A stretch of DNA of 64,000 nt, taken from a phage. Both the position numbers and the translations under genes were made by a program. The stretch lies in NCBI GenBank assembly GCA_014435945.1, contig GCA_014435945.1_4088.1. One strand, 5' to 3'. The notes under the pieces were generated by a model, which was not told the DNA's origin, made no database searches, and was given only the letters and a program-made list of their open reading frames with translations. Below are positions 14,170 to 51,378 of the stretch, in pieces. Positions within the stretch are counted from its first letter, which is position 1. Each line of letters begins with the position of its first letter.

Positions 14170-14694
14170 ATGGAAAGAGTTGAAGAATGGCGTGATGTAG
14201 TTGGATATGAAGAACATTTCCAAGTTAGCAATAAAGGTAGAATCTTTAGCAAAAGAACTAATAAAATTTTAGTACTAGGTATTAATCAGAAAGGTTACAA
14301 TGTTTTAAGTACTAGGATTGGGGGTCGTGGGGGTGTTTGTAAATGTTTTAGAGTTCACATATTGGTAGCTACAGCATTTATTCCAAATCCACACAACAAA
14401 CCAATCGTTAACCACAAAGATGGTAATAAATTAAACAATGAAGATTGGAACCTAGAATGGGCTACTTATAGTGAGAATAATATACATGCATACGAGACTG
14501 GTCTTAACATTCCACTAAAAGGTTCCGAATGTGTTCAATCTAAATTAACAGAAGAAGATGTTAGATATATTCGTTCTGTATATAAACCATATGATAAAAA
14601 ACATGGTTCACGTGTATTAGCAGATAAGTATGGTGTATCTCACACTGTAATATCAGACGCAGCCTTGAATAAAACATGGAAGCATGTTAAGTAA
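14170..14694 (+). CDS. HNH homing endonuclease
   Basis: NHKDGNKLNN...NLEWATYSENN motif typical of phage HNH_3 endonucleases. Confidence 0.8.
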   Translation: MERVEEWRDVVGYEEHFQVSNKGRIFSKRTNKILVLGINQKGYNVLSTRIGGRGGVCKCFRVHILVATAFIPNPHNKPIVNHKDGNKLNNEDWNLEWATYSENNIHAYETGLNIPLKGSECVQSKLTEEDVRYIRSVYKPYDKKHGSRVLADKYGVSHTVISDAALNKTWKHVK

Positions 14695-14732
14695 AATACA
14701 TTTTTGTCAATTTTAATTAAAGGTTAAAAACC

Positions 14733-14897
14733 ATGACACATGAAGAATGGATGGATGACATTAATGTTAGATATTCGGGTATAGGTAGTTGGCGAAAATA
14801 TCATTGGGAAATCATATCAGACCCAGTAGAATACAATAAACTTATGAATCATGAAGTGTATCCGTGGTTCTTTATTGAAATAATGGTACGATTATGA
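14733..14897 (+). CDS. small protein, MTHEEW family (54 aa)
   Basis: Below track cutoff; MTHEEWMDDINVRYSGIG... Confidence 0.45.
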   Translation: MTHEEWMDDINVRYSGIGSWRKYHWEIISDPVEYNKLMNHEVYPWFFIEIMVRL

Positions 14898-15058
14898 CAC
14901 ATGAAGAATGGATGAATGACATTAATTTTAGATATTCGGGTATCGGTAAATGGCTAAAGTATCATTGGGAATTCATTTCAGAGCCACATCTGTATGATAA
15001 ACTTATCAACGATCCAGCATATGAAATGTACTTAATTGAACTACTGGTACGAATATGA
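14894..15058 (+). CDS. small protein, MTHEEW family (54 aa)
   Basis: ATGA overlap with previous copy; MTHEEWMNDINFRYSGIG... Confidence 0.45.
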   Translation: MTHEEWMNDINFRYSGIGKWLKYHWEFISEPHLYDKLINDPAYEMYLIELLVRI

Positions 15059-15219
15059 CACATGAAGAATGGATGAAACTCCAAAAACTAAAATGGAATC
15101 CTTATCATCTATCATTAGACCCTATGATGTGGGGTGTTATACGTGTTAAGTGCATGTACAAAGCCTATTTAAGTTCTGTACTCGACGAAGAAGTACTGAT
15201 GCATATCGTGTACCGATGA
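15055..15219 (+). CDS. small protein, MTHEEW family (54 aa)
   Basis: ATGA overlap; MTHEEWMKLQKLKW... Confidence 0.45.
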   Translation: MTHEEWMKLQKLKWNPYHLSLDPMMWGVIRVKCMYKAYLSSVLDEEVLMHIVYR

Positions 15220-15228
15220 TTAAAAAGC

Positions 15229-15256
15229 TTGACTAAATAGTTCAGTACTGTATAAT
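15229..15256 (+). promoter_or_regulatory. promoter, CAGTACTG-spacer class
   Basis: TTGACT-AAATAGTTCAGTACTG-TATAAT. Confidence 0.6.
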
Positions 15257-15287
15257 GTTTGTATCTTAACTTATATGGCAACTTGAT

Positions 15288-15644
15288 ATGTTTAGTGAAT
15301 ATGAAGAAGCAATAACACGCAACCTTGAAGATTTACATAACTTCCAATTTTATAATTGGGATAAACTAATGAGATTGTACTTACAGTGGGATGAAGATGA
15401 AGAAACTTCTGTTCAACGAACTGTTATGTTAAACATTTCGTTACGTAAAGATATTAGTTCAATTGATGTTGAAGTTTCTACTTATACAGGAGAAGATTAT
15501 AATCCCTTTGTTTCAGGTACTTCCCCTGTACCAAAGACAGAAGAAGAATATTTTCAAATGAGTACTGTACAAGAACCATTGTTCAGTTATGAGTTTTATA
15601 AGTACTTGATTGGTAAATTCAAAAAAATGCGAATTAATTCTTGA
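15288..15644 (+). CDS. hypothetical protein, FQxS-module family
   Basis: EEEYFQMSTVQEP motif. Confidence 0.55.
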   Translation: MFSEYEEAITRNLEDLHNFQFYNWDKLMRLYLQWDEDEETSVQRTVMLNISLRKDISSIDVEVSTYTGEDYNPFVSGTSPVPKTEEEYFQMSTVQEPLFSYEFYKYLIGKFKKMRINS

Positions 15645-15668
15645 CTAAATAGTTCAGTACTGATATAA
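15640..15668 (+). promoter_or_regulatory. promoter, CAGTACTG-spacer class
   Basis: TTGACT (contains stop of upstream gene), 17 bp, TATAAT. Confidence 0.55.
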
Positions 15669-15689
15669 TGAATTCCACAATCAGACGTA

Positions 15690-48995: not shown

Positions 48996-49265
48996 ATGTA
49001 CGCATTGTATAATAAAGAAAAGAAACGATTTGCTAAGGTTGAAATTTCGATTGATACATTTGACATGTTGGAGTACTGTATTGTAACGGATTTATATGCT
49101 AACTTGTATTACGTTCTTGATGACGTATCAGTACTGCAACGATTGCTTGAGAATTCCAAAAGCCAATGCCAGGGCATCTATGATGGTTCATCTTATGAAA
49201 CACCTGAGTGTTCCTACGGCTATCTGGACGGGTATGAGATTGTGAAGTTGGGGATTGTTGAATAA
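48996..49265 (+). CDS. hypothetical protein
   Basis: ATG 48996 two nt after upstream stop, GGAG RBS (track start 48930 overlaps). Confidence 0.5.
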   Translation: MYALYNKEKKRFAKVEISIDTFDMLEYCIVTDLYANLYYVLDDVSVLQRLLENSKSQCQGIYDGSSYETPECSYGYLDGYEIVKLGIVE

Positions 49266-49358
49266 ATGGATTAAACAATGAAGAAGTGTATCATTCTTTG
49301 TTCTAATCACCATCGCATGGTACATTCTGGTAGACTATGTTTGATTGAAAGAAAAAAA

Positions 49359-49391
49359 GGGTTGACTTCAGTCGGCCCTTTTTGCTATAAT
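49359..49391 (+). promoter_or_regulatory. terminator-promoter cassette
   Basis: GGGTTGAC-TTCA-GTCGGCCC, TTTTT, GC, TATAAT. Confidence 0.7.
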
Positions 49392-49419
49392 CATTTCATC
49401 GAAACGAGAGGATGAATAC

Positions 49420-49935
49420 ATGACACGCATTAACTTAGTACACGTTAAAGAACTTGCTGACCAACATCTGATGGCTGAATATCGTGAACTCCCACGTGTG
49501 TTTGGTGCTGTACAAAAACATGTTCAAGCACGTAAGCGAGTCCGTGATTTCAAAATTAACAGTACTTACCTGTTAGGTTCAGGTCATGTAACATTCTTCT
49601 ACAACAAGTTATTGTACTTACAGAAGCGTCATATTGATATTGTTAACGAATGTTTGCGTCGTGGTATGAAGATTCAAAACACTGAAGTAAACGACATTAG
49701 CGGATTCCCTGCTGAGTTTTGTAATGACTACGTACCATCGGAGTCAGAGATTAAAATGTCTCGTGAGCGTTTGATTGAGAAGCTACAGATGAAGCCTACG
49801 TGGTATAAATTTACTGACGTTGAACGCCCACAGTATGTTAAAGATATGCAGGACGTAAGTAGTAATATAGAATCTAGTACTGATATGTTCGACGAAATTG
49901 AAGAACAAATCAAAGATGAAATGAATAATTATTAA
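49420..49935 (+). CDS. denV: pyrimidine-dimer DNA glycosylase (T4 endonuclease V homolog)
   Basis: N-terminus [31 protein letters not shown] and [15 protein letters not shown] closely match the T4 DenV sequence as I recall it. Confidence 0.85.
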
Positions 49936-49941
49936 AGGAAA

Positions 49942-49974
49942 GGGTTGACTTCGGTCAGCCCTTTTTGCTATAAT
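49942..49974 (+). promoter_or_regulatory. terminator-promoter cassette
   Basis: GGGTTGAC-TTCG-GTCAGCCC, TTTTT, GC, TATAAT. Confidence 0.7.
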
Positions 49975-50000
49975 TATTTTATCGAAACGAGAGGTAATAC

Positions 50001-50213
50001 ATGAAACTATCTTTTATACGTTTAGCAGAATTCTTCGGTACTGATATTATTACTTTACAACAAATTGCAGACAATACTTCATTAAGTACACAAGAAGTAC
50101 TTGACTTAGATGTAATTCAGTGCGATAATACTTCCATTGATTTCAAAGAAGGTCTTGTCGAAAAAGATAAGATTCAAGCTAAGATTAATGGTGCTGGACG
50201 GGTTCAGTACTGA
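50001..50213 (+). CDS. hypothetical protein
   Basis: 70 aa; GAGAGG RBS. Confidence 0.5.
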   Translation: MKLSFIRLAEFFGTDIITLQQIADNTSLSTQEVLDLDVIQCDNTSIDFKEGLVEKDKIQAKINGAGRVQY

Positions 50214-50229
50214 AAAGGAGTATTGAGTA

Positions 50230-51378
50230 ATGTTTGAAAAGTACTATTTAAATGAAGATGGTGAGAAAGTTTATATTATTGAAGAATTATGTACTAAATT
50301 TGAGTACATGAAAATAGAAAATGTTCCTGTAAAAAATAAAAAAACTATCGTTAGAATTGATGAAATTAAACTAAAAGCCATTGAAAAAGAAGATACTATT
50401 TTTGGCTTACAGATATCAAACAGTAATCAATTTTTTGGACTAGAAAAGAATAAAGTTCTGTTTAGATGTGGAACATGCAGCACTTTATGTACAAGTTCAC
50501 TGAAAAGTTATCTTATCTCTGGTGGATGTCAGATATGTGGTAAGAAGAAAAGAAAAGAGTACCAAAACACTATCAAAATATCTGAATCTGATGCATTAAA
50601 AGAAATACAAAAAGAGTGTAAACGCGAATCTATTACATTTATCAAATTTGAAGGTGAATTTACTACAAAATTCAAATCTAAATTTTGGTACAAATGTAAA
50701 AACAACCATACTCGTTTATGTGAGAACATTTATGATTTTCTTAATGGTCATAATTGTGTTGAATGTCGTGATTACAGCTCGGCAAAAAAGATTCGTTTGA
50801 ATATTCTAGTAGTCAAATATGAAATAGATAAAAGAAACGCAGTTTGTAATAATACCTTTATTGGATTTGTGGGAGGTGTTTATGAAACATCAAAAACAAA
50901 ATTACATTTACAGTGTAATGATTGTAATAACCCATTTTATCCATCATATCATAACTATATATCATCTGAGTCTTCATGTCCTACCTGTTCATCAGGTGAG
51001 AGTAAGAATTTAGTTGATATTGATGGTATGTTAGAAGATGATACCATAAAAGAGAAACGCTTCATTGATTGTAAGTTCAAAAAGCCATTACCTTTTGATC
51101 GATTTATTGAAAGTAAACGAATCCTTCTGGAATATGATGGAGTACAACATTTTCAATCAATCAAATTATGGGGCGGCAAAAGTGCTTTTGAACAAAGAAA
51201 GATAAAAGACGCAATAAAAACTGAGTACGCCATCAACAACGGTTACAACTTCATTAGGATTGCATACTATGAAGACCACGTTGCAGTACTGAAATCTTTT
51301 CTAAAACTTATCGAAGATAATCCAGAAAAGCAAATCGTACAGATTTATGGTGAAGTACAAATCTTAGACAAGAAATAA
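50230..51378 (+). CDS. zinc-ribbon-rich protein with C-terminal endonuclease-like region (possible homing-endonuclease-like)
   Basis: Several CxxC pairs; C-terminal LEYDGVQHF...RKIKD...GYNFIRIAY resembles Vsr/PD-(D/E)xK-type nuclease core (low certainty). Confidence 0.5.
   Translation: MFEKYYLNEDGEKVYIIEELCTKFEYMKIENVPVKNKKTIVRIDEIKLKAIEKEDTIFGLQISNSNQFFGLEKNKVLFRCGTCSTLCTSSLKSYLISGGCQICGKKKRKEYQNTIKISESDALKEIQKECKRESITFIKFEGEFTTKFKSKFWYKCKNNHTRLCENIYDFLNGHNCVECRDYSSAKKIRLNILVVKYEIDKRNAVCNNTFIGFVGGVYETSKTKLHLQCNDCNNPFYPSYHNYISSESSCPTCSSGESKNLVDIDGMLEDDTIKEKRFIDCKFKKPLPFDRFIESKRILLEYDGVQHFQSIKLWGGKSAFEQRKIKDAIKTEYAINNGYNFIRIAYYEDHVAVLKSFLKLIEDNPEKQIVQIYGEVQILDKK

Follow-up and report, generated by a model that had tools for sequence, protein, structure and literature searches.

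Two predicted mobile nuclease genes and a conserved HNH gene in the early/tRNA region of an Asteriusvirus jumbo coliphage

Results

Three kinds of nuclease gene in one phage region

The 64,000-nucleotide (nt) stretch of phage DNA analysed here (contig GCA_014435945.1_4088.1 of assembly GCA_014435945.1; hereafter, the window) carries three plus-strand open reading frames (ORFs) with nuclease signatures, referred to as gene 1 (14170..14694, 174 amino acids [aa]), gene 2 (31427..32221, 264 aa), and gene 3 (50230..51378, 382 aa). A first-pass annotation, made from the letters alone, had described them as an HNH_3-type endonuclease next to a candidate tRNA-Arg and near an array of MTHEEW ORFs, a second HNH-motif protein, and a “zinc-ribbon nuclease-like gene” with many CxxC pairs and a C-terminal nuclease-like core. 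All three ORFs are present at these positions, and searches beginning with Pfam returned nuclease evidence for each. Megablast of three regions of the window against GenBank phages matched only 121Q/PBECO4-type jumbo coliphages of 320–385 kb, identifying the source as an Asteriusvirus. The closest record is the unannotated phage TH47 (96–99% identity to the window), and the closest annotated relative, fEgEco12, is 98–99% identical and collinear with the window except for insertions and deletions (indels). The window, in which many small plus-strand genes accompany sigma-70-like promoters, seven tRNA genes, denV, and a minus-strand RCC1-like array, represents the early/tRNA region of this jumbo coliphage and carries nuclease genes of three different kinds.

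Gene 1 is a predicted I-HmuI-type homing endonuclease in a tRNA cluster

Gene 1 encodes a protein of I-HmuI-like NUMOD4–HNH_3 architecture, as the first-pass annotation had proposed for its HNH_3 part. Both Pfam domains scored above their cutoffs (NUMOD4, E 6e-12 and 46.1 bits against 23.4; HNH_3, E 1.5e-6 and 28.1 bits against 24.8), and the protein matched phrog_59, “HNH endonuclease,” at 1.8e-48. The best solved relative was I-HmuI of Bacillus phage SPO1, an HNH nicking homing endonuclease that is likewise 174 aa long (PDB 1U3E; E 7e-19 over residues 6–111). The two proteins align in the N-terminal NUMOD4-type domain and in the HNH_3 core, with H82, N94, and N103 of gene 1 falling on H75, N87, and N96 of the 1u3e chain. 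The latter we take, from the I-HmuI literature, to be the H-N-N residues of the enzyme, such that the catalytic His and both Asn are kept. The settings of the two genes differ; I-HmuI is encoded inside a group I intron of a DNA polymerase gene, whereas gene 1 is free-standing, with a tRNA gene and small ORFs as neighbours. A group I intron around gene 1 was considered and rejected, Rfam having detected tRNAs only. Relatives of gene 1 were found in 2549 phage records, and its ratio of nonsynonymous to synonymous substitution rates (dN/dS), 0.20–0.25, indicates that the ORF is maintained.

A copy of gene 1 with at least 80% identity is present in 10 of roughly 36–40 Asteriusvirus records (TH47 and nine others). 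These copies occupy two alternative sites, each adjoining tRNA genes, and empty sites were also found. Site A lies between tRNA-Arg(tct) (14065..14138, plus strand; ARAGORN, Rfam tRNA 56.7 bits), directly upstream of gene 1, and the first gene of the MTHEEW array, the neighbours that had been predicted; it is filled in the window, in TH47 (98.9% aa identity), and in UB (86%). Site B, about 2 kb downstream, has an extra tRNA-Ser on one side and the tRNA-Ser(act)/Met cluster on the other. The annotated loci of WPEC3 and ph0011, which were inspected, carry the extra tRNA-Ser and an 81–82% identical gene 1 copy at site B, and alignment coordinates place the JP4 and EC.P1 copies there as well. In the window, site B is empty, at about 16400 (16400..16438, plus strand, a promoter just upstream of tRNA-Ser(act)). 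Where site A lacks the homing endonuclease gene (HEG), it holds other tRNA genes (ph0011 and 121Q) or a 90-aa ORF and a tRNA-Ser (fEgEco12 and WPEC3).

Blastn breakpoints and the annotation of relatives delimit the variable cassette at site A to 14016..14707 (plus strand), which comprises the tRNA-Arg and the HNH gene. The tRNA-Arg that accompanies gene 1 is quite different in sequence from the tRNA-Arg of the HEG-less site A in ph0011. Sites A and B have only 14152..14694 (plus strand) in common, that is, 18 bp containing the ribosome-binding site followed by the ORF. This mobile unit is 86% identical in nucleotide sequence to the WPEC3 copy, with surrounding DNA 93–99% identical, and gene 1 sits exactly at an indel boundary between phage genomes that are otherwise 90–99% identical. 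Such a distribution is what is classically seen with free-standing homing endonucleases of phage tRNA clusters. Gene 1 is thus predicted from its sequence to be a free-standing homing endonuclease of the I-HmuI type, the target of which would be the tRNA-region sequence of HEG-less phages. The HNH endonucleases of the T5 tRNA region are comparable. The textbook case of homing in a tRNA cluster is T4 SegB (cited in PMC4122927); like SegB, gene 1 resides in a phage tRNA cluster and moves with the neighbouring tRNA allele, but SegB is a GIY-YIG enzyme and gene 1 an HNH enzyme.

Several further features of this neighbourhood were recorded. The MTHEEW array consists of four paralogous ORFs of 54–56 aa that begin MTHEEWM (starting at 13035, 14733, 14894, and 15055; window 13035–13205 and 14733–15219), three of which follow one another in tandem, the stop codon of one overlapping the start codon of the next. 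Relatives keep this triplet, except UB, which has two copies. Another indel beside an MTHEEW-type ORF, at 12471–13103, contains a 167-aa ORF of unknown function (12535..13038, phrog_22160) that is present in WPEC3 and ph0011 and absent from fEgEco12. Positions 16439–16627 hold a tRNA-Ser whose anticodon, ACT, is unusual, together with a tRNA called as Met(cat) that, at 90 nt, is uncommonly long, and 17805–18038 holds three near-identical tRNA-Thr(tgt) genes in tandem with an 80-bp period, where 121Q, ph0011, and WPEC3 have one copy.

Gene 3 joins treble-clef zinc fingers to a predicted Vsr-like nuclease core

Gene 3 encodes three treble-clef zinc fingers and a predicted Vsr/DUF559-like PD-(D/E)XK nuclease. 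Five CxxC pairs were found, at residues 80, 100, 176, 229, and 250, and the treble-clef modules are C80/83/100/103, C156..C176/179, and C229/232/250/253. Pfam recognised a DUF4379 treble-clef finger (26.3 bits against a cutoff of 24.5), while fingers of other alleles read as CapR or DUF723 (CapR, 33.6 bits against 24.2 in the 73% identical allele P0007, and up to 126.9 bits in allele P0008); the protein also matches PHROGs 559, 681, and 9084. The C-terminal ∼110 aa form an alpha/beta domain in which D290, E301, D303, H307, D327, K330, and R343 are invariant in 27 sequences. The AlphaFold2 (AF2) model was good overall (predicted local distance difference test [pLDDT] 86), and the core was modelled as strand-strand-strand-helix-strand with pLDDT >90. 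Weak but consistent Pfam matches of the core over 12 alleles were to DUF559 (4 of 12; best E 0.0036), DUF5889 (8 of 12; best E 3.2e-5, first-member score below cutoff), and DUF2726 (2 of 12; best E 1.6e-4), and the PvuRts1I-like family was also among them. DUF559 and DUF2726 belong to the PD-(D/E)XK clan.

Comparison with the viral structure library BFVD gave 235 matches at E ≤ 0.001, among them proteins from Firmicutes phages and giant eukaryotic viruses that are named homing endonuclease, group I intron protein, DUF2726, restriction endonuclease, or treble-clef zinc finger protein; matches to viral proteins of the DUF2726 or restriction-endonuclease-like kind reached E 1e-11 to 1e-20. The nuclease domain found 294 phage records by tblastn, mostly of Staphylococcus, Streptococcus, Enterococcus, Lactococcus, and Bacillus phages, one of them annotated “group I intron-associated VSR homing endonuclease.” The motif D...ExDG..H...D..K...R of the Vsr-like HEGs of Firmicutes phages (I-Bth0305I type) is kept in gene 3, although identity to those proteins is 25–50% and confined to the nuclease domain. 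PDB sequence searches with gene 3 and with its nuclease domain returned nothing relevant, and since I-Bth0305I was not retrieved, gene 3 is not assigned to its EDxHD subgroup. These observations point to a core that is Vsr/PD-(D/E)XK-like, not HNH. The label “zinc-ribbon nuclease-like” was therefore right in outline, and the label “HNH endonuclease” carried by relatives of gene 3 is, on this domain evidence, a misnomer. The GC content of gene 3 is 0.296, against 0.348 for the window, and internal DNA repeats of note were not found in the gene.

The arrangement of gene 3 is reminiscent of HEGs in which CapR/DUF723/DUF4379 repeats act as “beads-on-a-string” DNA-binding modules on T5orf172 homing endonucleases, including those of ICP1 (Barth et al. 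2023, PMC10448857). As in the CapR-type HEGs, repeated treble-clef fingers stand N terminal to the nuclease domain, the number of modules varies between alleles, the alleles recombine, and the genes cluster by conserved genes. The two differ in the nuclease itself, which is predicted to be a Vsr/DUF559/DUF2726-like PD-(D/E)XK domain in gene 3 and is T5orf172/GIY-YIG-like in the CapR-type HEGs of ICP1.

A single slot beside denV holds many divergent alleles of gene 3

The nuclease slot is fixed. It lies beside denV (49420..49935, plus strand), a T4 endonuclease V-type pyrimidine-dimer glycosylase gene (phrog_1183, 8.7e-59, and relatives' annotation), and between ORF70 (50001..50213, plus strand; 70 aa, phrog_34150) and an AAA/P-loop gene (51450..52220, plus strand; phrog_1250, 256 aa in fEgEco12). 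The AAA gene is found downstream of the slot in all occupied genomes, distant relatives included, and ORF70 directly upstream of the variable nuclease gene at every occupied locus examined. In 11 of 11 occupied loci examined (5 annotated phages and 6 assemblies), the nuclease gene is upstream of the AAA gene, and directly so except in 121Q, where gp222 intervenes, and in assembly L024, where two small ORFs do. ORF70 was considered as a travelling partner of the nuclease and rejected, being single-copy and resident; of the 29 Asteriusvirus records with ORF70, 28 show 91–100% identity and the remaining one, EJP2, 78.6%.

At least 20 strongly divergent alleles occupy the slot, and the allele of the window is shared only with TH47 (99.7%). 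Occupants elsewhere are 372 aa long in JP4 (34% identity to gene 3), 371 aa in vB_Ec-M-J, and 474 aa in SHEFM2K. Those of 121Q (gp221, 487 aa) and phAPEC6 (gp019c, 628 aa) share the slot with gene 3 but fall into another PHROG, and their C-terminal domain differs, showing no similarity to the gene 3 nuclease domain. The slot is empty in fEgEco12, in which the AAA gene comes next after denV; alignment coordinates suggest that EC.P1 likewise has an empty slot. Homologues of gene 3 range from 264 to 530 aa. Each of the six database homologues checked for contig context is situated in the interval from denV to the AAA gene, which makes it very probable that the 27 homologues are alleles of a single slot and not paralogues at scattered positions.

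Divergence among the alleles is uneven along the protein, with mean pairwise identity of 19% in the zinc fingers, 42% in the first half of the nuclease domain, and 76% in the last 55 residues. DNA homology between alleles ends about 0–55 nt into the ORF and resumes 165–185 nt before its end. Blastn breakpoints and segment identities place the hypervariable core of gene 3 at 50287..51212 (plus strand), where DNA homology is lost relative to the alleles of JP4, EcMJ, SHEFM2K, and L020–L023. Phages with a 96–99% identical AAA protein carry alleles only 30–49% identical to gene 3, and a 73% identical allele occurs in metagenomic phages (L018/L019, compared with window 50055–52214) together with an AAA protein only 56% identical. 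This mismatch indicates that the history of the alleles is decoupled from that of their flanks, i.e., horizontal exchange into a fixed site. Gene 3, too, sits exactly at indel boundaries of otherwise 90–99% identical genomes. As a separate observation, the nuclease of L018/L019 is better conserved than its AAA neighbour, the opposite of the pattern within Asteriusvirus.

The slot could instead serve the phage, as a retargetable weapon against competing phages or satellites comparable to Odn of ICP1, with its fingers under diversifying selection. Such a role would fit a fixed slot that is vacant, among the genomes sampled, only in fEgEco12 (and, judging from alignment coordinates, in EC.P1), a DNA-binding part with 19% mean identity beside 90–99% identical flanks, and the report that zinc-finger domains of HEGs have been co-opted in phage-satellite conflicts (Barth et al. 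2023, PMC10448857). However, fEgEco12 and, by alignment coordinates, EC.P1 are viable with the slot empty, no satellite or competitor target was identified, relatives elsewhere carry annotations as intron-associated or free-standing homing endonucleases, and turnover of alleles at one site is expected from competing HEGs as well; we regard a weapon function as quite unlikely. At longer odds still, Asteriusviruses and their relatives would possess, in the ORF70–AAA slot, a locus dedicated to a “programmable nuclease,” with the 5′ stub and the catalytic 3′ half of the ORF as recombination handles for swapping finger arrays and even nuclease types. If this were true, each phage would have its own DNA specificity, turned against co-infecting phages or satellites, and the locus would not be one of selfish homing. 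The reading preferred here is that gene 3 is a mobile homing nuclease, alleles of which are exchanged within a fixed slot.

Repeated PeSL cassettes bound the modules around denV

Relative to the empty site of fEgEco12, the window contains extra DNA from 49984 to 51385, consisting of ORF70 and gene 3. It is flanked by a perfect 41-bp direct repeat, AAAGGGTTGACTTCGGTCAGCCCTTTTTGCTATAATTATTT (left copy 49938..49978, right copy 51386..51426, both plus strand), of which the empty site keeps exactly one copy. The repeat is a promoter-early stem-loop (PeSL) element, in which a hairpin (A3G3-loop-C3T5; AAAGGG..CCCTTT) overlaps a near-consensus promoter, TTGACT-18-TATAAT with a TG extension, giving the composite layout AAAGGG-TTGACTTCGGTCA-GCCCTTTTT..TATAAT. 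PeSLs occur at six sites in the window: 38457–38491, 42056–42085, 45061–45095, 49357–49391, 49940–49974, and 51387–51421. The fourth of these, a PeSL-type terminator/promoter cassette on the plus strand, lies upstream of denV, and the same hairpin alone ends the sigma-factor gene at 30335–30360. The window elements fit the nt-1/KVP40 consensus, A3-4G3-loop-C3T3-4 with TTGYVH-N17-TAWWAT.

PeSLs of T4-like phages are reportedly treated by Arbiol in work of 2010. In T4-like phages, the PeSL element bounds shuffled modules (Comeau et al. 2014). The elements described here share with the nt-1/KVP40-type PeSLs the same hairpin and promoter and the placement of copies at indel boundaries, but reside in Rak2-like jumbo phages, not in phages of the Tevenvirinae type; their promoter and terminator activities are predicted. 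The 59-bp element alone matched 72 phage records, among them other Rak2-like phages, KVP40-type Vibrio phages, and Aeromonas phage 65. The presence of this short element accounts for odd megablast matches to Vibrio, Erwinia, and Aeromonas phages, which were considered as transfers of the nuclease or AAA gene and rejected as such.

The modules between denV and the AAA gene comprise gp218–222 in 121Q, seven ORFs in JP4, two in the window, and none in fEgEco12, and each module is bounded by PeSL cassettes. Upstream of denV, fEgEco12 (g570) and TH47 carry an intact 137-aa HNH gene (phrog_2255, 1.6e-32), the stop codon of which lies inside the −35 box of the adjacent PeSL. Tblastn and sequence alignment detected the decayed remnant of this fourth nuclease gene in the window (49278..49361, plus strand). 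It retains the first 5 and last 22 codons, MKKCI joined to ILCSNHHRMVHSGRLCLIERKKG, the intervening 106 codons having been lost in frame at a 10-bp microhomology. TH47 (16620–18603) has both the 137-aa HNH gene and a 507-aa ORF of repeated CapR/DUF723-like finger units before denV, such that denV in TH47 is flanked by three nuclease-type genes. denV is a conserved gene around which nuclease genes cluster, and thus forms the core of a small homing-endonuclease island as Barth et al. (PMC10448857) use the term.

Because PeSLs bound the gene 3 cassette and other modules around denV, gain and loss of genes there need not be driven by nucleases alone. An extreme version of this view holds that the indels arise only from recombination of repeated regulatory cassettes (PeSLs and tRNA promoters), with the nucleases as passive, possibly inactive cargo. 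The perfect repeat around the gene 3 module, the PeSLs that bound nuclease-free neighbouring modules, the similar promoters that bracket the gene 1 cassette at site B, and the documented PeSL-mediated shuffling in T4-like phages are all consistent with that proposal. It accounts poorly, however, for breakpoints that fall inside the gene 3 ORF and not only at PeSLs, for gene 1 copies at two sites that share only the ORF and 18 bp, for discordant phylogenies of alleles and flanks, and for catalytic residues that are intact in gene 1 (dN/dS 0.2–0.25) and invariant in gene 3. Purely passive carriage thus appears rather improbable, and mobile nucleases within PeSL-bounded modules are favoured instead.

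Gene 2 is a conserved zinc HNH gene with vertical inheritance

Gene 2 encodes a predicted zinc HNH (H-N-N) domain with a family-specific C-terminal helical region. Its ATG start is that of the annotated orthologues, a longer TTG-initiated ORF beginning at 31337, and it abuts the stop codon of the upstream ORF. Two small ORFs (69 and 75 aa; 30992..31425, plus strand, from the ORF list) abut or overlap each other and gene 2 as apparent operon partners, and a promoter-like TTGACA-17-TAGAAT is located at 30899, upstream of the operon. Pfam HNH matches were below threshold (HNH, E 0.017 and 15.7 bits against 21.4; HNH_5, 15.0 against 27.5), yet the protein matched phrog_35175, which contains its orthologues, at 8e-149, along with a dozen other “HNH” PHROGs. 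In family alignments, C47, C50, D86, H87, N101, C106, C109, and N110 are invariant, indicating a zinc-stabilised H-N-N motif. A profile search of 1.84 billion representatives recovered 1856 proteins, with about 25–30 full-length family clusters; the short matches cover the HNH core, and 10 of 10 that were checked scored above threshold for Pfam HNH or HNH_5. With the family profile, E values for canonical Pfam HNH/HNH_5 proteins run from 1e-9 to 1e-16. The sole profile match in the PDB, HNH endonuclease 4h9d (E 0.47), aligned across the catalytic motif. Profile homology thus bears out the HNH motif that had been called here from the letters.

By tblastn, gene 2 was found in 56 records, 38 of them with at least 80% protein coverage. 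Identity among Asteriusviruses is 78–99%, and homologues of 289–319 aa with 22–29% identity occur in Eneladusvirus BF, Mimasvirus CBB/GAP32, Salmonella phages PHA46/Munch/7t3, and Erwinia and Yersinia jumbo phages. Gene 2 lies within one unbroken alignment to 121Q (window 17960–32773, 79% nucleotide identity), and virtually all Asteriusvirus records have it in the same place, diverged to the same degree as its flanks. No empty site for gene 2 was found among the Asteriusvirus records, nor the sporadic distribution of a mobile gene. Its dN/dS is 0.28, and its GC content, 0.364, equals or exceeds that of the genome. We conclude from these comparisons that gene 2 is probably a real HNH nuclease gene of the Rak2-like jumbo phages that has been inherited vertically and is not a currently mobile element. 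It may be an element fixed very long ago or else an enzyme that was domesticated, and its position in an apparent early-gene region makes a role in early host takeover or DNA processing plausible.

The CxxC..DH..CxxCN layout had raised the possibility of an endonuclease VII-like resolvase, which was rejected; Pfam and PDB searches gave no match to Endonuclease_7 or T4 gp49. The CBB genome paper (PMC5259590) assigns endonuclease VII to CBB_248, an ORF different from the gene 2 homologue, and lists CBB_535 as a free-standing homing endonuclease. By its position as described in that paper, CBB_535 appears to be the CBB homologue of gene 2. This listing, the lack of conserved gene 2 neighbours between genera, and paralogous small HNH genes nearby in BF and CBB would agree with gene 2 also being a homing endonuclease, one that swept to fixation in each lineage. 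That history is unlikely, however, given the common position and flank-like divergence in essentially all Asteriusvirus records, purifying selection, the operon-like abutment to the upstream ORF, the unremarkable GC content, and the absence of any empty site. Vertical inheritance of gene 2 therefore remains the favoured interpretation. Between the sigma-factor terminator and the promoter of the gene 2 operon lies an ORF-free region of ∼600 bp (30395–30990; GC 0.38–0.39), which has no Rfam match, a fold-energy z-score of −1.75, and length variants in relatives.

Other features of the window

A 194-aa ORF at 24707–25291 is 100% identical to fEgEco12 g508, annotated “putative endonuclease.” As a further nuclease it was rejected, having only a Pfam NOV_C match at E 0.066 and membership in phrog_16175, of unknown function; the label on g508 looks unsupported. 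The RCC1-like array (54763–63777, minus strand) comprises eight paralogous genes of 372–401 aa, labelled “chromosome condensation regulator” in relatives. Their copy number and integrity vary among phages, several being broken up in 121Q.

Discussion

The observed domain architectures, intact catalytic motifs, purifying selection, distribution, breakpoints, repeats, and discordant histories lead to an account in which genes 1 and 3 are mobile homing nucleases, gene 2 is a vertically inherited HNH gene, gene 3 alleles are exchanged in a fixed slot, and the surrounding modules are bounded by PeSLs. We assign this account as a whole a probability of roughly three in four. The first-pass annotation had suggested that such nuclease genes mark sites of gene gain and loss. 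Comparison of presence and absence among relatives supports the suggestion in part. Genes 1 and 3 are polymorphic, sporadic in occurrence, and located at indel boundaries, whereas gene 2 is collinear among relatives, with dN/dS 0.28, and marks no such site.

For genes 1 and 3, we infer cleavage, targets, and direction of transfer along the following lines. In a mixed infection, the gene 1 product would nick or cut an HEG-less relative near its tRNA genes, and repair from the HEG-bearing genome would copy gene 1 and the adjacent tRNA allele into that relative. In the gene 3 product, target recognition on the DNA would fall to the three arrayed CapR/DUF4379-type fingers and cleavage to the Vsr-like PD-(D/E)XK domain. 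Alleles of gene 3 could be swapped by recombination in the conserved 5′ (∼55 nt) and 3′ (∼165–185 nt) ends of the ORF, and the whole module of ORF70 and nuclease gene could be gained or lost via recombination between the identical flanking PeSLs.

Several observations weigh against parts of this account. In gene 1, Asn81 stands where I-HmuI has Asp74, next to the catalytic His. The Vsr-like assignment of gene 3 was made on sub-threshold evidence, with DUF559 at 17.6 bits against a cutoff of 20.6. Vsr (1cw0 and 1vsr) ranked with the best PDB matches of gene 3 by Foldseek, with probability 0.80 and target-normalised TM scores of 0.52 and 0.44, at an E value of 0.33, which is attributed to the query being the full multidomain model. 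The alignment of gene 3 with Escherichia coli Vsr by hhalign was not significant, though the expected PFD/RPD motif was aligned. For gene 2, the AF2 model was poor (13 sequences; pLDDT 73.5, with residues 90–158 below 50), and a Foldseek search of the PDB with this poor model gave nothing below E 1. Neighbours of gene 2 have no detectable homologues beside the CBB, BF, PHA46, and GAP32 copies, so that synteny across genera is not supported. Finally, recombination between PeSLs might suffice to account for the indels, in which case the nucleases would be passengers.

The components described here are of known kinds, namely an I-HmuI-type HNH gene, zinc-finger plus Vsr-like HEGs, a conserved phage HNH gene, and PeSLs. 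Mildly new are the existence of one hypervariable slot ahead of the AAA gene and the occurrence of KVP40-type PeSLs in Rak2-like jumbo phages, which share these cassettes with T4-like phages. For annotation, the analysis separates two genes that we read as truly mobile nucleases from a conserved HNH protein that is apparently listed as an HEG in the CBB paper, and it corrects the “HNH endonuclease” label of the gene 3 family to zinc-finger plus predicted Vsr-like PD-(D/E)XK nuclease. The denV neighbourhood emerges as a small homing-endonuclease island with one hypervariable, always-targeted slot. Current concepts are unchanged by these findings, which provide defined loci for testing HEG-driven against PeSL-driven turnover in therapeutic jumbo coliphages.

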